The position numbers and the translations under genes were made by a program. The notes under the pieces were generated by a model. The model saw only the letters and a program-made list of their open reading frames with translations. It had not been told where the DNA came from and searched no databases. From a virus: 64,000 nucleotides of DNA. The DNA is taken from IMG/VR virus record IMGVR_UViG_3300023084_000004; one strand, written 5' to 3'. Positions 44,060 through 54,472 of this stretch are shown piece by piece; within the stretch, counting starts at the first letter, position 1, and each line of letters starts with the position of its first letter.

Positions 44060-45211
44060 ATGCGTATTGATAATGAAATCAAACTTGACTATAAAGATGT
44101 TTTGATTCGTCCAAAAAGATCAACACTTGGAAGCAGAAAAGAAGTAGATCTATATCGTGAGTTTAATTATAGGAATTCTGAGCATTATGAAATGAGTATG
44201 AATGCTTTACGACCTGAAATGCCAGATTATCGTGGTATTCCTATTATGGCTTCGAACATGGATGGAGTTGGTACATTTGAAATGGCAGATGTACTTTCGA
44301 AACATGGATTGTTTACCTGTCTTGTAAAAACTTATTCTAAAGAAGATCTAATTAAATTCTTTAATTCAGGAAAAATTCTTCGTACAGAACACTGTGCATA
44401 TAGCATGGGTATTTCAATTGAAGAGCTTACTAAGTTTATTGAAGTATATCAACATGACCGAGAAGCAATTAAGTATGTATGTGTAGATGTTGCCAATGGA
44501 TATAGTAATCGTTTTAGAGACTATATCGCAACACTAAGAGAAAAAGCACCACATATTGTGATTATTGCTGGTAATGTTGTAACTGGTGAAATGACAGAAG
44601 AACTTATACTGAGTGGAGCAGATATTGTTAAAGTTGGAATTGGACCTGGTAGTGTTTGCACTACTCGTATTCAAACTGGTGTGGGTTATCCTCAACTTTC
44701 AGCGGTCATTGAATGCGCTGATGCTGCACATGGTCTTGGTGGACATATTATTGCTGATGGTGGTTGTGTATCACCTGGTGATGTAGCAAAGGCATTTGCC
44801 GCAGGAGCAGATTTTGTAATGTTGGGTGGAATGCTCGCAGGACATGATGAAGGTGGTGGTAATGTAATTACTGAATCTATTATTTCAAACGTGCAGGCGC
44901 CCGCTACGTCCGCGGGGATTGGTAAACGTATTGAGAAACAATTTGTAGAGTTTTATGGTATGAGTTCTAAATCTGCTAATGATAAACACTTTGGTGGTCT
45001 TAAAGACTACAGATCCTCAGAAGGTCGTACAGTGGTGGTACCATATAAAGGACCAGTACTTAATACAGTACAGGACATTCTAGGTGGTTTACGTAGTGCG
45101 TGTACATATGCTGGTGCAGAAAAGCTTAAAAATTTAAGTAAATGTACAACCTTTGTTCGCTGCACTCAAACGCACAATCAAGTTTATGAAAGTTCAACAA
45201 TAGGAGTATAA
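44060..45211 (+). CDS. guaC: GMP reductase
   Basis: KLDYKDVLIRPKRSTL.SR, MASNMD, DVANGYS, KVGIGPGSVCTTR, FYGMSS..A, YRSSEG. Confidence 0.93.
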   Translation: MRIDNEIKLDYKDVLIRPKRSTLGSRKEVDLYREFNYRNSEHYEMSMNALRPEMPDYRGIPIMASNMDGVGTFEMADVLSKHGLFTCLVKTYSKEDLIKFFNSGKILRTEHCAYSMGISIEELTKFIEVYQHDREAIKYVCVDVANGYSNRFRDYIATLREKAPHIVIIAGNVVTGEMTEELILSGADIVKVGIGPGSVCTTRIQTGVGYPQLSAVIECADAAHGLGGHIIADGGCVSPGDVAKAFAAGADFVMLGGMLAGHDEGGGNVITESIISNVQAPATSAGIGKRIEKQFVEFYGMSSKSANDKHFGGLKDYRSSEGRTVVVPYKGPVLNTVQDILGGLRSACTYAGAEKLKNLSKCTTFVRCTQTHNQVYESSTIGV

Positions 45212-46396: not shown

Positions 46397-46418
46397 AAGG
46401 GACTCGAAAGGGTCCCTT
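46397..46418. terminator. Bidirectional terminator between convergent operons
   Basis: AAGGGACT-CGAAAG-GGTCCCTT. Confidence 0.7.
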
Positions 46419-46968
46419 ATCTTTTATTACAATGTTTTTTTGCTTTTTCGAGTACTCTAAGATTACTGTGAACAACAACAGAAGTTAACATAAGTGTAGG
46501 CATCAAGATTTCATTTGTGATTGTTTGTCTTTTTTGAATCTCTGGTAATATAGATCCAAATATTGCTGTTTTAAGAAGTACCATTTCATGTATCTCTGGC
46601 ACTCTTGGTAATAAAGGATTCAATTCATATACACAATCGTAAGCGAGGGCTTTTTTGGTAGACCAGATATCTGCAGCTTGAACGAGAAAAAAGATCGTCC
46701 AGGTGGCTAAGCTGGCAGGTTCCTCCTCTGTTATTTTAAATTCAGGAAAAATTAATGTTGATTGAATGTGAGATGGATGTGGTAAATTAACAATTGAGCC
46801 ATTAGGCATTATTCTTGCTTGACCTATAATAACTCTTTGAACATATTCGTCATTGTATGGTGCAGTATAACCTGCTTCAAACATTACTCTTTGTATATCA
46901 GTGTACCCTGCATATACTGGAAAACTTAAAAAAAGTAATCCGATAAGTAATTTATTTAGTAGTCGCAA
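46417..46968 (-). CDS. Exported/membrane hypothetical protein
   Basis: Signal peptide; AADIWST..AL...ELNPLL motif. Confidence 0.7.
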   Translation of the reverse strand: MRLLNKLLIGLLFLSFPVYAGYTDIQRVMFEAGYTAPYNDEYVQRVIIGQARIMPNGSIVNLPHPSHIQSTLIFPEFKITEEEPASLATWTIFFLVQAADIWSTKKALAYDCVYELNPLLPRVPEIHEMVLLKTAIFGSILPEIQKRQTITNEILMPTLMLTSVVVHSNLRVLEKAKKHCNKR

Positions 46969-48991
46969 TGAAAATCCCGTCCCAATCTTTGGGTAGATCT
47001 TGCGTTTTCATATATTCACAACGCTCTATCCACATGGTATAATATCCAGCCATCTGACCTTCAAAACATTCCATTAAATCATTACATATTTTTATGGCTT
47101 TATCAAAGTTTTGTTTTCTATAATTCATATGCATAGCTTCATGCATCTCAGCCGGTTTAATATATTTATCCTTATTTAAATCTAAAACTGTGTATATCTC
47201 AATGCCTACTGATTTGCCCTTTACAGCAAGATCATCTACTTTCAAAAAGAAAAAGTCATTTCGACATCTTTCAACAGTTGCGCCACCTACTAAAAGCAAA
47301 CAACCATATTCTTTACATTTAGATTCTATTCGTGCTGCTGTTGATACTGCATCTCCAAGAACATCATAACTATGTCGCTCTGTAGAACCCATTTCACCAA
47401 GATATCCGAGACCAGTATTAATACCGGCACCCATACCAATTGGTGGTCTTCCTTCAGCAATAATCTTTTTATTAAATTCTTCTACAGATTTAAGCATGTT
47501 CAATCCAGTTTGAACAGCAGTTTTAGGGTGGTCAGGATCTTCTATAGGTGCGTTGTGGATGTGCATCGACGCATCGCCTATATATTTAATAATCATTCCA
47601 TCAGCGTTAAGGACAGGCTCAGTGATTGAATCCATATATCCATTCATTAATTTCGTTAATCCTTGTACGTCATCTCCAAAGCTTTCACCTAAAGGTGTAA
47701 ATCCTCTTAAATCAGAAAAACAAATACTAATTTCTTTTTTCATTCCCTCTTTAACGAGAGAAGGATTCTCTTGGAGTAAACGAACGACTGTAGGAGAAGC
47801 ATACCCAGCAAATTGTTTTGCTAGTTGACGTTTCTCTAAAAACGTGATAAAATACTTGTTAAAACTTGATTGAGCAAATACTACTAAGGAAGCAAATGAA
47901 CTCATTGTGGCGTCAACGAATAGCAGCGAATCAGTCCATAAATAATATGATATTAATGAAGAGGAAGCGAGCAGAAATAAACTCGTTGTCAATCCAAGAA
48001 TTGTGGGCAAAATATAGACCGCTCCAAGGATACCTAGACTCAGTAAGACCAGAAGAAGCAGCTCGACTATTGGCTGCCAGTCGGGAATCTGTATTTCAAC
48101 TCCTGAAAGGACGGTCTGAACCAGGTGTGCTTGAACTTCGTGAGGATACTTTGCACCCGTTGGGGTTGCGACTGGATTAGCATATCCTTCTGCTGTAATA
48201 CCAAATATTAATACCTTTCCATCTGGTAAAGGATCAAGTATACTTACTTGTTCAAATTCGTTCCAGAAAGCAATTGGTATTTCGGCAAAACTATTTGTTG
48301 TGATAGGATCTTGACGACCCATACGAATCCACTCAACTCCGAGTGGACCTACTTTCATTTGATAACTGGGTTCTCCTGTGAACACTCGTAATGTATCGAG
48401 TGCGAGAGATGGATAGGGATTCCCGGCTGCTCTGACCACGAGTGGTGCTCTACGCACAACTCCTGTTGGTTCATCAGGAACAGCAACGGTGGCACCAACA
48501 CCAAAAGCGTAATCAGCAAGAGGTTGAATAGGGTACAATAATCCTGGAAATTCATAAAGCCAATTTTCATTTTGTTCTCCAAAGGTAGCAACACCAACAA
48601 AGGTGCCAACTCCATCTGATGTTTGTTGAGTAGGAGCAGAAGATAATACAACAGCTTTTTGTGCCATTGCTTCTGCAAGTTGATTATCTCCTCCGAACCT
48701 ATCAGATTCGGAATAGATCATATTTAAGACATAAAGAGAATTAGGAGAATTGTTATTAAGGTACTTAGCAACAATATCCCGAGGCCACGGATATTGGCCT
48801 TCAGCTGCGATAGCTCTTTCGTCAATGTTGACGAGGACAATATCGGTTGATTGTATTTTTTCTTGTTCTGATTGAAGATAGTCATAATATGCATATTCTA
48901 TACTTTGAATAAAGTTTGGATTAGAAATTGATAAGGTTGCAAATCCAGCAATTGTTATTAATACTGTCCACCACTTTGTTAACCATTTCAT
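46952..48991 (-). CDS. CHASE2-domain membrane class III adenylate cyclase
   Basis: IVLVNIDE..I...GQYPWPR and PTGVVRR (CHASE2); three TM helices; FSDLRGFT, KYIGDA, GAGINTG, YDVLGDAV..AARIE; TPR-like tail. Confidence 0.92.
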   Translation of the reverse strand: MKWLTKWWTVLITIAGFATLSISNPNFIQSIEYAYYDYLQSEQEKIQSTDIVLVNIDERAIAAEGQYPWPRDIVAKYLNNNSPNSLYVLNMIYSESDRFGGDNQLAEAMAQKAVVLSSAPTQQTSDGVGTFVGVATFGEQNENWLYEFPGLLYPIQPLADYAFGVGATVAVPDEPTGVVRRAPLVVRAAGNPYPSLALDTLRVFTGEPSYQMKVGPLGVEWIRMGRQDPITTNSFAEIPIAFWNEFEQVSILDPLPDGKVLIFGITAEGYANPVATPTGAKYPHEVQAHLVQTVLSGVEIQIPDWQPIVELLLLVLLSLGILGAVYILPTILGLTTSLFLLASSSLISYYLWTDSLLFVDATMSSFASLVVFAQSSFNKYFITFLEKRQLAKQFAGYASPTVVRLLQENPSLVKEGMKKEISICFSDLRGFTPLGESFGDDVQGLTKLMNGYMDSITEPVLNADGMIIKYIGDASMHIHNAPIEDPDHPKTAVQTGLNMLKSVEEFNKKIIAEGRPPIGMGAGINTGLGYLGEMGSTERHSYDVLGDAVSTAARIESKCKEYGCLLLVGGATVERCRNDFFFLKVDDLAVKGKSVGIEIYTVLDLNKDKYIKPAEMHEAMHMNYRKQNFDKAIKICNDLMECFEGQMAGYYTMWIERCEYMKTQDLPKDWDGIFIATTK

Positions 48992-49731
48992 TATTGGCCC
49001 TGCGTTACTGATACACTACAACCACCTACAGTATAACAGGTTTGATTGAGTGAATATGATTTATTTAAAGTCGAATCTTGTAAAAGTGTTATATCAGTTC
49101 CGTATGTTCCGTCAAGTCTTATCCATGCATAATGACTTCCACTATTTTTTTGAACAACATCAACAATATTACCATCATTGTAAATATCTAAATCTAATGT
49201 ATGTCCACCACCTTCTCTTTGAATAGTAGATATATCATTATAATCTCCTTCAATATGTAAACCATACCAATGACCTGAAGAAGTACTGTTTGTTCGTTGA
49301 GTCATTTCTATATTGTTGTAATCACCAGTGACATTGATATGAGCAAAGGTATCACCATATTCATCATTGTCTATAGAAAAACTTCCGTCTCCATTAATGA
49401 TATATCCTTGAGCAAGTTTTAGATCGTTTCCTATTCCCCAAACTCTACGAATCTCTATGATGTTTTTATCAGTAGAACTACCATAGTTCTTATTTTGTGC
49501 AATAGAGATAGTATTGTCTGCACCATCTATTCCTTCTGTTGATGACCATTGTTTAATGATATTGCTATAACCTATTTGTGTTATATTTAGATCAAAATTG
49601 TCACCAGTCTGTTCTATTGTGATTTCATTATCTGCATAGGCTTTACCGGCTGCCAAAAGAAAATACATTCCTAATAGGCACCAACTAAATCCTAATAACC
49701 ATTTATCTAATTTTCTATCAAATTCGTCCAT
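48991..49731 (-). CDS. Secreted curlin-like repeat protein
   Basis: Signal/TM segment; repeated I-x-Q-x-G-x-x-N units (ITIEQTGDN, LNITQIGYSN). Confidence 0.65.
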   Translation of the reverse strand: MDEFDRKLDKWLLGFSWCLLGMYFLLAAGKAYADNEITIEQTGDNFDLNITQIGYSNIIKQWSSTEGIDGADNTISIAQNKNYGSSTDKNIIEIRRVWGIGNDLKLAQGYIINGDGSFSIDNDEYGDTFAHINVTGDYNNIEMTQRTNSTSSGHWYGLHIEGDYNDISTIQREGGGHTLDLDIYNDGNIVDVVQKNSGSHYAWIRLDGTYGTDITLLQDSTLNKSYSLNQTCYTVGGCSVSVTQGQ

Positions 49732-49739
49732 AAACTTAT

Positions 49740-50903
49740 TTATCCACCCTGTCTTATAATTACTGTTGAGTTATTACCGCCATTTAGATCAATGATCCCA
49801 CTATATCCTTCTACTTCTGTATTTACTTTTACTGAAGCATCTACGGCAAATGCTAATTGAATCTTTCCATTTGCCAAACGATAAAAAATTATTTTACCGT
49901 TATCTTCATAAATGTTATATTGAGAATCTGAATTTAAACCAAATCCTGCACCTTTTAATTCTGCGCCCATCGCATTATTTGATACTGCACTATCATCTAA
50001 TGAAGCTGTTGTTTTTACGAGATCATCAATTACATTTAATAAATCAACAAGAAAATCTACATCTAAAAAATCAATATCAAGTTCTGAAAATTCTAATTCG
50101 TCTTCCGCTAATGCATCATATTCTAATTCGTTAAATTCTAAAAAGTCAACATCAAGCAATCCTTGATCATCATTATTTTCATCGTTATATTCTTCTTCTA
50201 ATGCTCTTTTTACTTCAGGAGGTGGAGACACAATGAACATATTATCAATAACATTTGCTGTTATATTTGAAATATTAATCTGTCTTGTTGGCGGATCATC
50301 TAATGTAGAAACCATTGTTGCTGCGTAAGCTTCTTCTAAAGTAATCGTACCTCCTAAATTAGATACTTCAATTGTTCCTGATGGATTACCATATTGATCT
50401 GGTAAAAGTATGACCAGTGATCTTCCAAGCTCATCTATGGTGGTTGTGAAATCTGTTCCGCGTACCGCAATACTTGCAGTAGGTGTTTGTATGTCTATAT
50501 TACTTTTATTTACCATACCCAAACGACCTGATGCAAATCGTGCAGTGCCTAATGCCATACGCATTGCCATTTTGGATTTACTTGGATCAGGATCGTAGTA
50601 TACACTATCAATGTATACTTTGGTATTTTCGGTAAGACTGAGTTCTGCTTTATCTAAGAATTCGATAAGCATTCGGCCATTCTCAGTTTCGGCCGTATCA
50701 TTAATGACAATGTCAGGTACTTGTTGGTCTGACACCTCAAGAGTTGCACCTGCTTCTCTTGTAATAGAACCAGTTCCTGTGTGTTCAACAATATTGCCAA
50801 TTGGGTCTGCTGCAGACAAACCCAATGGCAACAAAGTGAAAACACTAAGTATCGTTAGACGAATCTTTTTGATTAATCTGGATAGTAGCATTGTCAGAAT
50901 CAA
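49740..50903 (-). CDS. FecR-domain protein
   Basis: Signal peptide; DTAET.NG..., L.ENT, G..RF.SG, TPTASIAVRGTDF; start may be 50891. Confidence 0.8.
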   Translation of the reverse strand: MILTMLLSRLIKKIRLTILSVFTLLPLGLSAADPIGNIVEHTGTGSITREAGATLEVSDQQVPDIVINDTAETENGRMLIEFLDKAELSLTENTKVYIDSVYYDPDPSKSKMAMRMALGTARFASGRLGMVNKSNIDIQTPTASIAVRGTDFTTTIDELGRSLVILLPDQYGNPSGTIEVSNLGGTITLEEAYAATMVSTLDDPPTRQINISNITANVIDNMFIVSPPPEVKRALEEEYNDENNDDQGLLDVDFLEFNELEYDALAEDELEFSELDIDFLDVDFLVDLLNVIDDLVKTTASLDDSAVSNNAMGAELKGAGFGLNSDSQYNIYEDNGKIIFYRLANGKIQLAFAVDASVKVNTEVEGYSGIIDLNGGNNSTVIIRQGG

Positions 50904-51576
50904 TGTCTAAAGTTATAATCCCATTACAGGTTGATACACCTGTAGGACATGTTCCACTTAATTGATTGATATCTATATCGGCACTATCTCCAACGTGAGT
51001 CATATTGATTTCGTGCTCAGCACCATCTTTTTGCATTGTGTTAATGTTATTTGAATCTCCAGTAATATCGAAGTTCCAAATCGCATCATCAACATCAATG
51101 TCAATATCAAATACGTTAGTTGAACCGAGAACAGATAAATCAAAATCCAATCTCTCGGCACTTGCGTTATAACCTAGATCGAAATCCATAGTGTTGCTAT
51201 CACCAGTTATATCAGACAAAATGTTTGCTGAATCTGATGAACCAACATAACCAATGTTCCAATCCCAACTATTACTATCTCCAGTCCAAGTAAGATCTAT
51301 TGTTGAACTGTCTAATGTAATAGGACCAAAAAGCAAATTGCTATTACCAATTTGATTAATGTCAATATTCAAAGTTGCACCAATAATAGACATTGCTGAA
51401 ACTGATCCTGAAGAAGCGTTATCTCCTCCAACTTTGTTTCCATATCCATATTGGTCAATATATAAAGTCAATGTATCACCTTGTTGGTCAATATTGATTT
51501 CGTTATCGTCCGTTGCTTGCGCAAATGCGAAAGTAGAAACAAAAACTAAACTTAGGCCTAATAGTTTTTTAATCAT
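50845..51576 (-). CDS. Secreted curlin-like beta-solenoid repeat protein
   Basis: Signal peptide ending AFA; NEINIDQQGD, IDINQIGNSN, ITGDSN repeats. Confidence 0.65.
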   Translation of the reverse strand: MIKKLLGLSLVFVSTFAFAQATDDNEINIDQQGDTLTLYIDQYGYGNKVGGDNASSGSVSAMSIIGATLNIDINQIGNSNLLFGPITLDSSTIDLTWTGDSNSWDWNIGYVGSSDSANILSDITGDSNTMDFDLGYNASAERLDFDLSVLGSTNVFDIDIDVDDAIWNFDITGDSNNINTMQKDGAEHEINMTHVGDSADIDINQLSGTCPTGVSTCNGIITLDIDSDNATIQINQKDSSNDT

Positions 51577-52487
51577 TCTTCTTCCCCGTTATTTTGTTTG
51601 TTTATTTTCCAGAAACCACGACGATCTCCTTGATAAACCATTTCCAATACGGCAGCTTCAATTGCTGTTCGTACTGCATACGTCACACTTTCATTATTTC
51701 CTACACCGTCTTCATATTCAATCAACTGCGTTCCCTGCTCGATGAATCTAAAAACATCGCCTCCGGCACCATAACTTAAAATTGTTTTTTTCGTTTGTAC
51801 ATTAAGTAATACTTCACCAGTTAAAACTGATACTGCTCTTAATGAAATAGTAACTTGATCTTGTCTATATTGACGAGTAATACCTAATCCTAGCGTCCTT
51901 GCTCCGATACCGCCCGTTCTTAAGTTACTATCATATCCAATAATACCGCCTTCAATTATCATTCCTGCGAATAAAAGTGGTCCAAGATTTGGAGCATCTT
52001 CTCCAGTTATCTTTGCGGCTTCTTCTCGACCACTACGAATAATTTGTCTTTCTCTAACAAGAGCATCAATCCCTTGTCTTTCAGCAACTCTAAACCATTT
52101 ACCATCTCCTGCAGTTTTGAGTGCATCAATTAATAATTCTGTTCCACCTTGTGTTACCGCAGTGGAGAAACTTTGTCCTGTGACTGAATCTTTACGTTGT
52201 CCTGTTTTATCTAAAAAGTTATATACAGCAACCACCGGCATTTGTTCGGCTGGCGGTAAATTTAATAATTCTATATAAGATGGTAATCTTACAACTTCAG
52301 GATTATCTGCGCATATTAATTGTTGTGCATAAAACTTTCTTACGCCTGTATAAACGTCTCTTCCAAATCCTTCTGAATATTTACCTTTACCATATTCACA
52401 TTGACCAGGATTTTCATTCCATTGCGGAATAGATGCACAACCTGTAATAAGAAGTAATAGACTAACCGCCGTCAGGATTCGAGTCAT
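51573..52487 (-). CDS. csgG: Curli secretion channel lipoprotein CsgG
   Basis: Lipobox LITGC; VAVYNF.DKTGQRK, FSTAVTQGG, WFRVAERQG, EGGIIGYD, YRQDQVT..LR.VS..TGEVL; start moved to 52487. Confidence 0.92.
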   Translation of the reverse strand: MTRILTAVSLLLLITGCASIPQWNENPGQCEYGKGKYSEGFGRDVYTGVRKFYAQQLICADNPEVVRLPSYIELLNLPPAEQMPVVAVYNFLDKTGQRKDSVTGQSFSTAVTQGGTELLIDALKTAGDGKWFRVAERQGIDALVRERQIIRSGREEAAKITGEDAPNLGPLLFAGMIIEGGIIGYDSNLRTGGIGARTLGLGITRQYRQDQVTISLRAVSVLTGEVLLNVQTKKTILSYGAGGDVFRFIEQGTQLIEYEDGVGNNESVTYAVRTAIEAAVLEMVYQGDRRGFWKINKQNNGEEE

Positions 52488-52992
52488 CAGTTCCTCCGCC
52501 GAAGTTACCACTACCAATAGGTATTTCAATCACGGTCGTTGTCCCATCTTCCCCGACAATCGTCATCTTAATATATTCAGTACCATCTGTGTTTGTAATT
52601 ACTTCATATGTTACTGTTGATCCTTCCAATACAAAGGATCCATACCTTACAGGATTATCATTAGAGAACATATTGTCTACTAACTGTTTTGCTAATTGAG
52701 CATAAATCCTGCTTTCAAGATTTCTTATAAACTTTGCTAAAATTGTATTATCTGCTTCTCGTTCTGCTGCCTTTCTTGCAGCTTCCATTGCATCTTCGAT
52801 TTGTTTCTTTCTACTAAATTCTTGGTTCTCAATAGTTAAATAATGAGCACCAGTTCCAATTCCGCTGAATGATGGATTTTTAAATTTTTGTACTATAGGT
52901 TCACCATATACTTTTCCTGTTGCAAGTAAAAGATATGTAATAAGTATTACCCAACCAATAGCAAGTAAACCTCTATCATCAGTTTTTTTCAT
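52462..52992 (-). CDS. csgF: Curli assembly component CsgF
   Basis: FKNPSFSG....HYL..ENQE; FIRNLESRIY.QL. Confidence 0.85.
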   Translation of the reverse strand: MKKTDDRGLLAIGWVILITYLLLATGKVYGEPIVQKFKNPSFSGIGTGAHYLTIENQEFSRKKQIEDAMEAARKAAEREADNTILAKFIRNLESRIYAQLAKQLVDNMFSNDNPVRYGSFVLEGSTVTYEVITNTDGTEYIKMTIVGEDGTTTVIEIPIGSGNFGGGTDDSNPDGG

Positions 52993-53254
52993 TATTTTTA
53001 GAATCCTCTTTTAATCTTTCAATTTCTCTATATTTTAATACGACATCTACTTTTTGTTGTAAACGAATGAGGTCTTGATCTAACATTCTCATGCGATCAA
53101 TTACTTTGATAAGTTGCATGTGCATTTTATCTATTGTAGGAATAATATTTTCGTTTATAAAATTCCACACAAAATACACAAAATATCCTAAACCAATTAC
53201 CATCACTGTAGGAAAGCCATATTCAGATACGGCAGTAACTATATCAAATTCCAT
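52979..53254 (-). CDS. Small membrane/coiled-coil protein
   Basis: YGFP followed by a TM helix and heptads. Confidence 0.75.
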   Translation of the reverse strand: MEFDIVTAVSEYGFPTVMVIGLGYFVYFVWNFINENIIPTIDKMHMQLIKVIDRMRMLDQDLIRLQQKVDVVLKYREIERLKEDSKNNEKN

Positions 53255-53456
53255 CGAACAAATCCAATTGTTTTGGATTATATGGTTTCCTATTAGTCCT
53301 TATCAAAGCGGCGGCACCGTTGTAATGTTCCATCGCAACAAATTTATCACCAGCTTTCCAATTCAATTTTTCTAGTGTTAATTCACCGTCAGATTCGTCA
53401 AATATTAGTAAATCTCCACCGGGTATTACCGTGAAATGATAACCACAATATAGCAT
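53244..53456 (-). CDS. Hypothetical protein (AbrB/SpoVT-like pattern)
   Basis: LEKLNWKAGDKF; fills the operon gap exactly. Confidence 0.5.
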   Translation of the reverse strand: MLYCGYHFTVIPGGDLLIFDESDGELTLEKLNWKAGDKFVAMEHYNGAAALIRTNRKPYNPKQLDLFDGI

Positions 53457-53752
53457 TAATCTCTCCTTACGTCGAGTTTTCCGTCTTCTATAAAATTTTC
53501 CGCTCGAGCAATTCGCTCAATATCAGGATTTAATCCAAGTGCGCTAGAAACGAGTAAATCTATTTTAACCATCTCATTTGACATAGTTCTCGCTCTGTTT
53601 TCTAGGCTTTCACAGAACATATTCAACGTATTAATGCTATCAACTATTCCTTCAAAAATTTGTTTAATAATAATAAAGAGGAATGCTCCCATTACTAATG
53701 CACCTGCTATAGGTAAGCCTAAATCAGCTATTAGCTGGAGTATAGATTCCAT
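53456..53752 (-). CDS. Small membrane/coiled-coil protein, paralog of 52979-53254
   Basis: LGLP followed by a TM helix and heptads. Confidence 0.75.
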   Translation of the reverse strand: MESILQLIADLGLPIAGALVMGAFLFIIIKQIFEGIVDSINTLNMFCESLENRARTMSNEMVKIDLLVSSALGLNPDIERIARAENFIEDGKLDVRRD

Positions 53753-53801
53753 ATTATCCTTTTATTTTTTTTATAATGATACAATAAAAACTGTATCGTA
53801 C

Positions 53802-53809
53802 TATTTATA
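53802..53809 (-). promoter_or_regulatory. T4-type late promoter for the csg-cyclase operon
   Basis: TATAAATA on the minus strand about 50 nt before the first ORF. Confidence 0.6.
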
Positions 53810-53940: not shown

Positions 53941-54022
53941 AAAAAAAGTGAAAAAAAGTGAAAAAAAGGGTTGACATTTGCTTTGAGATGATGTATAATG
54001 GTAACATAAATTAGGAAAAGGA
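53941..54022 (+). repeat. Early-promoter cassette copy 3 with phased A-tracts
   Basis: (A7GTG)x2 then A7GGG TTGACATTTGCTTTGAGATGATGTATAAT...CATAAATTAGGAAAAGGA. Confidence 0.85.
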
Positions 54023-54419: not shown

Positions 54420-54472
54420 TTGACATTTGCTTTGAGATGATGTATAATGGTAACATAAATTAGGAAAAAGGA
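54420..54472 (+). repeat. Early-promoter cassette copy 4
   Basis: TTGACATTTGCTTTGAGATGATGTATAATGGTAACATAAATTAGGAAAA identical to copy 3. Confidence 0.85.

Follow-up and report, generated by a model that had tools for sequence, protein, structure and literature searches.

A gene block that joins the curli channel proteins CsgF and CsgG to curlins, a FecR protein and an adenylate cyclase has been described as a whole set in phages of SAR11 bacteria, in both myoviruses and podoviruses (Wittmers et al. 2022, PMC9599517). The same study found the module expressed in metatranscriptomes and present at all 65 ocean stations examined, and CsgF and CsgG were also discussed by Zaragoza-Solas et al. 2020 (PMC7029224) and Buchholz et al. 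2022 (PMC9004378). Here we analyzed a block of this kind at positions 46417-53809, on the minus strand, of the window, a stretch of 64,000 nucleotides (nt) from the IMG/VR virus record IMGVR_UViG_3300023084_000004. The virus record that holds the window is 137 kb long, and among named phages it is most closely related to Methylophilales phage Melnitz and Pelagibacter phage HTVC008M. The block is the viral type VIII secretion (curli) module already known from pelagiphages. A sequence-only reading of the window had proposed that it forms a complete signalling chain from the outer membrane through the periplasm to cyclic AMP (cAMP); this idea is not new, as Wittmers et al. presented the same gene set with similar hypotheses. 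Our study contributes new details: the composite origin of the module, a coupled Asp/Ser variant and a domain exchange in its cyclase, a conserved late-promoter motif, a kinase label that lacks support, and a tenth gene. CHASE2, promoters and the catalytic variant are not mentioned in the three papers cited above.

An uncultured T4-like marine phage thus carries its own copy of the pelagiphage module, and we consider it reasonably probable that this module combines curlin export with an envelope-sensing cyclase. The module is abundant: a close CsgG relative is encoded by at least 595 contigs in IMG/VR, and near-identical cyclases number in the thousands in metagenomes. Its carriers infect some of the most abundant marine bacteria, hosts that have no curli genes of their own. 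Should the module make cells sticky, block other phages or time lysis, carbon flow in the surface ocean would be affected. The value of the present analysis lies in a sharper parts list, in evidence that two separate alphaproteobacterial systems were combined in the block, and in a biochemical question about the variant cyclase.

Linkage and parts of the module

Ten open reading frames (ORFs) follow one another in tight series on the minus strand, neighbours either overlapping by 1-47 nt or lying 8 nt apart, and the GC skew changes sign across 46417-53809. The sequence-only reading had counted nine contiguous ORFs; it was right that they are on the minus strand and mostly overlapping, and the count is corrected here to ten. 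Apart from this number and two start codons, its parts list is correct. Predicted signal peptides, a lipobox and transmembrane (TM) segments were read from the translated sequences of the module ORFs, with Sec-type signal peptides predicted on CsgF, curlin 1, curlin 2, the FecR-fold protein and the DUF5658-like last ORF. Hidden Markov model searches gave Pfam matches for CsgG, CsgF, FecR, CHASE2 and Guanylate_cyc, and Curlin_rpt stayed below threshold in the window's own curlins.

Searches seeded with the cyclase recovered 24 viral loci, to which Melnitz and HTVC008M were added. Eighteen loci of this set reach far enough upstream, and all 18 hold two small membrane-protein genes (memA and memB), CsgF, CsgG, curlin 1, the FecR-fold protein, curlin 2 and the cyclase. 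When CsgG served as the seed, 80 of the contigs with a close relative were kept; curlin 1, the FecR-fold protein, curlin 2 and the cyclase are present in every locus with at least 5.5 kb of downstream DNA (37/37), and memA and memB in 76 of the 77 loci with upstream DNA. A third lineage of 25 loci (L221-L245), on contigs of 5-383 kb with a GC content of about 0.40, carries CsgF, CsgG, curlin, FecR, curlin and cyclase on one strand (for example L229:3783-12762). There, memB and memA stand inverted directly downstream of the cyclase in the 23 loci that reach that far, and the second curlin has up to 764 amino acids (aa). Because the linkage survives rearrangement, the eight genes appear to work together. 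The synteny survey that the sequence-only reading had suggested thus finds the genes co-conserved as a unit, rather than scattered, across at least three phage lineages.

The arrangement varies in individual loci. On one HTVC008M-like contig (L017:5096-13027), the cyclase gene is inverted and lies between memB and csgF. Another locus carries a 2.7-kb insert between curlin 2 and the cyclase (L032:13551-16284), which holds a small ORF, a uroporphyrinogen decarboxylase (URO-D, 3.3e-70), a family 2 glycosyltransferase and a calcineurin-like phosphoesterase; this insert suggests that the block tolerates cargo insertions.

The CsgF homologue (52462..52992; Pfam CsgF 6e-13, above cut-off) has a signal peptide and a mature N-terminus with the motif F-x-N-P-x-F-x-G, and no sequence match was found for it in the PDB. 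The CsgG lipoprotein, the outer-membrane channel subunit (51573..52487; Pfam CsgG 1.1e-53), has its probable start codon in the ATG at 52487, yielding MTRILTAVSLLLLITGC with the lipobox LITG|C, and its residues 66-297 match E. coli CsgG structures at 6e-50. At the constriction, the Phe of E. coli CsgG is kept, and Tyr and Asn are both replaced by Ser. Between the lipobox Cys and the conserved domain, the phage protein has about 50 additional residues (18-65), two of them cysteines.

Curlin 1 (50845..51576) is predicted to be a conserved, acidic, secreted beta-solenoid subunit. Its signal peptide ends AFA|Q, and its AlphaFold2 model (predicted local distance difference test score, pLDDT, 82) is an all-beta beta-solenoid. 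In an exhaustive VIA-align comparison, the second-best match of this model is Pontibacter CsgA (8c50; Z 16.9, 19% identity), with a high root-mean-square deviation (rmsd) of 8.9 Å and a score that generic beta-helices equal. Foldseek returned nothing for the model at E <= 0.001, and the curlin 1 profile gave chance-level matches only against PDB sequences. Curlin 2 (48991..49731) is a paralog of curlin 1 (hhalign 99.6%, E 2.7e-24) that evolves fast: it shows 30-46% identity in loci where the neighbouring genes show 65-88%, and its length ranges from 217 to 487 aa among related loci. Curlin_rpt is matched in 28 of 32 curlin 1 and 18 of 32 curlin 2 family members. Furthermore, the phage curlin profiles retrieve nine proteins encoded beside alphaproteobacterial csgG, and all nine carry Curlin_rpt above cut-off.

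The exported FecR-fold protein (49740..50891; Pfam FecR 2e-10) probably starts at the ATG at 50891. Its predicted layout is a signal peptide, a FecR/PupR-type domain, a very acidic disordered linker and a small C-terminal beta domain. Residues 27-225 of its model align with the C-terminal cell-surface signalling domain (CCSSD) of PupR (Z 15.0, rmsd 2.8 Å, 135 residues) and with the Parabacteroides anti-sigma factor BDI_1681 (Z 13.4), the next unrelated match scoring Z 6.3; pLDDT falls below 50 at residues 242-277 and 289-304. The C-terminal beta domain gave no convincing structural match. We rejected the idea that it is a curlin-like rung for fibre templating (hhalign probability 5%, no Atlas match). 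The protein has neither a cytoplasmic anti-sigma domain nor a TM anchor, its FecR domain following directly after the signal peptide, and the 137-kb record contains no match to the STN domain (PF07660). Although it shares the FecR fold, the protein is not a FecR-type regulator.

The cyclase (46952..48991) has 679 aa and consists of a CHASE2 sensor (Pfam CHASE2 2.4e-30 over residues 19-319), TM segments, a class III cyclase domain (Guanylate_cyc 3e-16) and a C-terminal extension of about 80 aa. Hydrophobic segments at residues 304-343 and 355-373, together with a hydrophobic N-terminus, place CHASE2 between an N-terminal TM segment and a TM bundle. The metal-binding residues D427 and D473, as well as K469 and R554, do not vary among the viral and cellular homologues covering these sites. 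Compared with P. aeruginosa CyaB and Synechocystis Cya2, however, the transition-state Asn is replaced by Ser550 and the class IIIb Thr/Ser position by Asp543, which resembles the class IIIa partner of K469; all 79 cellular homologues have Ser or Thr at that position. The Asp543/Ser550 pair occurs in 18 of 55 distinct viral sequences, the other 37 being canonical, and in none of the 79 cellular homologues. Strict coupling of the two residues is seen in 14 of 150 representative clusters, and all 23 third-lineage loci with a readable cyclase motif have the pair. By lineage, the variant is found in every viral locus of two lineages and in part of a third, and among loci with readable context the coupled change is confined to viral ones. 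The variant is not necessarily dead, since M. avium Ma1120, which naturally combines Lys/Asp with Ala at the Asn site, is active (PMC4215837).

Sensor and catalytic domains have separate histories. Loci L017-L020 share 34-36% identity with the window in CHASE2 and 78-83% in the catalytic domain. In L024 and L026, CHASE2 is 69-72% identical and the catalytic domain 39-40%, with canonical residues and no C-terminal extension. Judged by these identities, the catalytic domain is exchanged independently of the sensor domain, in a mosaic manner.

Flanking genes and transcription signals

At the upstream end of the block, memA (53456..53752) encodes a 98-aa single-pass membrane protein with a coiled-coil tail and memB (52979..53254) a protein of 91 aa; both match phrog_18771 (1.9e-23 and 6.7e-27), which identifies them as paralogs. 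Both proteins have one TM segment (residues 3-38 in memA) and a charged coiled-coil tail. Wittmers et al. labelled the genes ahead of csgF as histidine kinases (PMC9599517). This label is unsupported here: the memA of the window contains no His, the His of memB is not conserved in the family alignment, and no His column of the family is conserved. Neither protein has a HisKA, HATPase or any other Pfam match, and in the Atlas they fall only into viral clusters without a family. The layout is holin-like, and memA has a weak match to the holin phrog_4898 (E 0.008) without a matched stretch; searches of PHROG, Pfam and the Atlas gave no significant match of memA or memB to a holin family.

Two further genes accompany the eight linked ones. 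Between memA and memB lies a 70-aa ORF without a TM segment (53244..53456), an accessory insert whose BLAST matches are limited to the closest relatives (L003, L005 and L025), with weak profile matches at the same position in the distant third lineage. The last ORF (46417..46968) encodes a DUF5658-like membrane protein (Pfam DUF5658 4.1e-4, below cut-off). It is a frequent tenth gene, following the cyclase in 31 of the 37 CsgG-seeded loci with sufficient downstream DNA, and the HTVC008M/Melnitz group does not have it.

The sequence-only reading had placed a single late-type promoter upstream of the block, and the octamer TATAAATA, a T4-type late-promoter motif, does match at 53802..53809 (minus strand), some 50 nt ahead of the first ATG. 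Among 81 distinct related loci, 49 have this octamer no more than 150 nt ahead of the first gene, commonly just downstream of a GC-rich hairpin and T-run that close the preceding unit. This recurrence is the best available evidence that the module may form a separate late transcription unit. A terminator had also been claimed at 46397-46418. The hairpin is real, with a 9-bp GC-rich stem and a GAAA loop, and overlaps the last stop codon; however, it has a good T-run on the plus strand only, while the tail on the module's own strand is GCTGTTTGG. From its sequence, it reads as a shared or bidirectional hairpin and not as a clean terminator of the operon. Internal terminators show no excess within the module (6 versus 4.8 in shuffles).

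Beyond the block, two perfect sigma-70 consensus promoters (TTGACA, 17 nt, TATAAT) at 53971-53999 and 54420-54448 on the plus strand are directed away from the module and sit amid repeated CACTTTTTTT motifs. On the other side, the unit that converges on the module includes a 383-aa dehydrogenase-like gene (44060-45211, plus strand; phrog_9582, 1e-115).

Composite origin and competing explanations

Seven of 401 sampled alphaproteobacterial genomes have a close CsgG, and all seven loci show csgF, csgG and curlin in the phage order, with no FecR or cyclase gene within 10 kb. The closest cellular cyclases, mostly from Alphaproteobacteria, are 26-31% identical over the full length, including the C-terminal extension. 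A FecR-domain gene lies near 23-24 of 80 cellular cyclase homologues, HlyD and an ABC transporter accompany about 21, and none (0/80) has CsgG or CsgF nearby; the four cellular genomes with the closest cyclases contain no CsgG. Since the csg clusters occur without FecR and cyclase, and the cyclase loci without CsgG and CsgF, the phage block is a composite of two cellular systems. Wittmers et al. likewise stated that bacterial curli operons contain neither FecR nor the cyclase (PMC9599517). In Bradyrhizobium, a 1,692-aa protein with FecR, cadherin-like and Big_9 domains and a weak, sub-threshold serralysin C-terminal match ends 79 nt before the cyclase.

In Alphaproteobacteria, a CHASE2 cyclase repeatedly clusters with HlyD, an ABC transporter and a giant FecR-cadherin-like protein whose C-terminus shows a weak match of RTX type (L117:2835-10223, L127:844-10127, L132:4059-10301); this cluster appears to be uncharacterised. 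Some of its HlyD proteins are fused to a cyclic nucleotide monophosphate (cNMP)-binding domain.

In the reading we favour, the unit would be transcribed from the T4-type late promoter, the Sec pathway would export its subunits, and CsgG and CsgF would build an outer-membrane channel. The curlins would pass through this channel and polymerise on the surface of the infected cell, with curlin 1 as a conserved core or nucleator and curlin 2 as a variable exposed subunit. The FecR-fold protein and the periplasmic CHASE2 would form an envelope sensor pair that gates the cytoplasmic cyclase, a pair that may have been taken from alphaproteobacterial loci in which the cyclase lies beside FecR giant adhesins and type I secretion genes. 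Gated in this way, the cyclase could report or feed back on the state of export or of the envelope. Candidate pay-offs are cell aggregation or capture, a block to superinfection, and lysis timing.

Several observations weigh against this reading. No clumping of Melnitz-infected cells was seen (Buchholz et al., PMC9004378). The curlins of the window score just under the Pfam cut-off for Curlin_rpt (19.5 and 14.1 bits versus 20.7), and the resemblance of the curlin 1 model to CsgA is one that generic beta-helices share. CsgE (PF10627) has no match in the 137-kb record or among the module ORFs, and neither CsgC nor CsgD is among the Pfam matches of the module ORFs; all three are also missing from alphaproteobacterial curli systems (PMC9599517). 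The promoter is a motif match only, and the octamer is not enriched in the window (5 found versus 9.8 expected). On the signalling side, the cyclase of the window lacks the canonical transition-state Asn, and searches of the 137-kb record, three further viral records and the complete genomes of Melnitz and HTVC008M found no cNMP-binding domain. The S. meliloti FecR-domain protein SMc02177 is encoded by an output gene, and signal perception does not require it (PMC5498481), which cautions against reading the phage FecR-fold protein as a relay. The earlier signalling-chain proposal is partly supported and survives in its parts, their predicted export signals and their linkage, whereas every coupling between the parts is inferred. 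A complete chain from outer membrane to periplasm to cAMP is unsupported, given a FecR-fold protein without anti-sigma domain or anchor, no STN domain, no cNMP-binding domain and the lost Asn.

Other functions have been considered for the same genes. The CsgG/CsgF pore and the holin-like memA and memB could act in lysis timing as a gated secretin/pinholin that helps to schedule or execute envelope breakdown, with the cyclase as trigger, as Buchholz et al. proposed for Melnitz (PMC9004378). The conserved late-promoter motif, the single TM segment and charged coiled-coil tail of memA and memB with the weak holin match of memA, and the continued linkage of both genes even when relocated are consistent with such a role. 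However, it leaves two conserved secreted curlin paralogs and CsgF unexplained, the CsgG channel is narrow and lies in the outer membrane, and no holin family match is significant; we regard a lysis-timing device of this kind as unlikely. The module could instead deal with superinfection, either through fibres that block adsorption of competing phages or through CHASE2 and the FecR-fold protein sensing a second infection in the periplasm. T4 RI functionally senses a second infection in the periplasm. From the window to L017-L020, the extracytoplasmic CHASE2 diverges fast and the catalytic domain stays conserved, curlin 2 diverges far more than its neighbours, and exclusion was raised by Wittmers et al. 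(PMC9599517). Nevertheless, exposed repeat proteins can diverge rapidly for many reasons, and recombination rather than constraint could explain the pattern in the catalytic domain; a role in superinfection seems to us quite improbable. That CsgG without the CsgE gate is an open import pore admitting nutrients or cofactors, with the other genes as accessories, was suggested by Zaragoza-Solas et al. (PMC7029224) and Wittmers et al. (PMC9599517), and the record indeed contains no CsgE. We judge this very unlikely, as it would leave open why CsgF, two curlins, the FecR-fold protein and the cyclase are so strictly conserved together, and CsgE is equally missing from the alphaproteobacterial curli systems.

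Two further alternatives concern individual parts. Owing to the coupled Asp543/Ser550 change, the cyclase of the window might be weak, inactive or specific for a product other than cAMP, in which case the cAMP part of the proposal would be wrong. Ser in place of the transition-state Asn and Asp in place of the class IIIb Ser/Thr, the strict coupling of the two, the canonical residues in all cellular homologues and in most distinct viral sequences, and the absence of a receiver domain from the phage genomes searched all point this way. In contrast, both metal-binding Asp residues, Lys469 and Arg554 are invariant, the high identity of the variant domain between distant modules argues for function, and Ma1120 is active with Ala at the Asn site; a defective or differently specific enzyme is, in our assessment, decidedly unlikely. 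We would also attach a low probability to a more elaborate version, in which the Asp543/Ser550 domain is a phage-specific lineage with altered product or kinetics and a non-classical cNMP target, and FecR-CHASE2 monitors curlin export or the envelope for a late decision such as lysis timing or a superinfection response. The sequence-only reading had itself allowed that the curlin-like proteins might be virion fibres independent of CsgG, and beta-solenoids are common in phage fibres and tailspikes and a late-type promoter motif stands upstream. However, both curlins carry Sec-type signal peptides and curlin 1 has a beta-solenoid model with CsgA as second-best structural match, which makes virion fibres unlikely; moreover, the curlins always lie inside the csgF-csgG block, and their profiles find cellular Curlin_rpt proteins beside csgG. 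We consider virion fibres extremely improbable, and curlin export with an envelope-sensing cyclase remains our preferred reading.

Comparison with known systems

The module shares parts with several cellular systems. In the csgBAC/csgDEFG system of E. coli, CsgG matches that of the phage; the phage module differs in that no CsgE, CsgC or CsgD was found among its ORFs and in the change of the constriction Tyr and Asn to Ser. Alphaproteobacterial curli clusters of the csgF-csgG-csgA/B type have the same order of csgF, csgG and curlin as well as subunits with curlin repeats. FecR/PupR anti-sigma signalling uses a periplasmic domain of the same fold, whereas the phage protein has no anti-sigma domain or TM anchor, and the record holds no STN transducer.

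The sensing part of the module also has counterparts, which set precedents for encoding a FecR-domain protein beside a CHASE2 sensor. In the CyaD1/CyaD2/CyaK-Clr system of S. meliloti, a CHASE2 receptor adenylate cyclase is encoded beside the FecR-domain protein SMc02177, as in the phage (PMC5498481). A CyaD1 construct without CHASE2 makes cAMP constitutively, and CHASE2 appears to be inhibitory there (PMC5498481). This system differs in having the Crp-type receptor Clr, of which none was found in the phages, and no link to curli. In the Burkholderia/Pseudomonas "BiofilmReg" operon, a periplasmic LysM-FecR protein directly precedes a CHASE2 sensor, and the operon is linked to biofilms (PMC5192318); its output is a histidine kinase and response regulator, it has a LysM domain, and it includes no secretion channel. 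The alphaproteobacterial adhesin loci share with the phage the cyclase architecture, an adjoining exported FecR protein and secretion genes that serve a large repeat protein. They differ in using type I instead of type VIII secretion, in having FecR fused to a giant adhesin-like protein, and in their canonical catalytic residues.

The closest match is the type VIII secretion region of the pelagiphages, which has the same context: its carrier is a T4-like phage from the sea, and it is flanked there by the modules for replication and structure. HTVC008M (gp011-019) and Melnitz (gp97-104) show the same gene order, with two small proteins, CsgF, CsgG, curlin, FecR, curlin and adenylate cyclase. 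To this set the window adds the 70-aa ORF and the DUF5658-like tenth gene.

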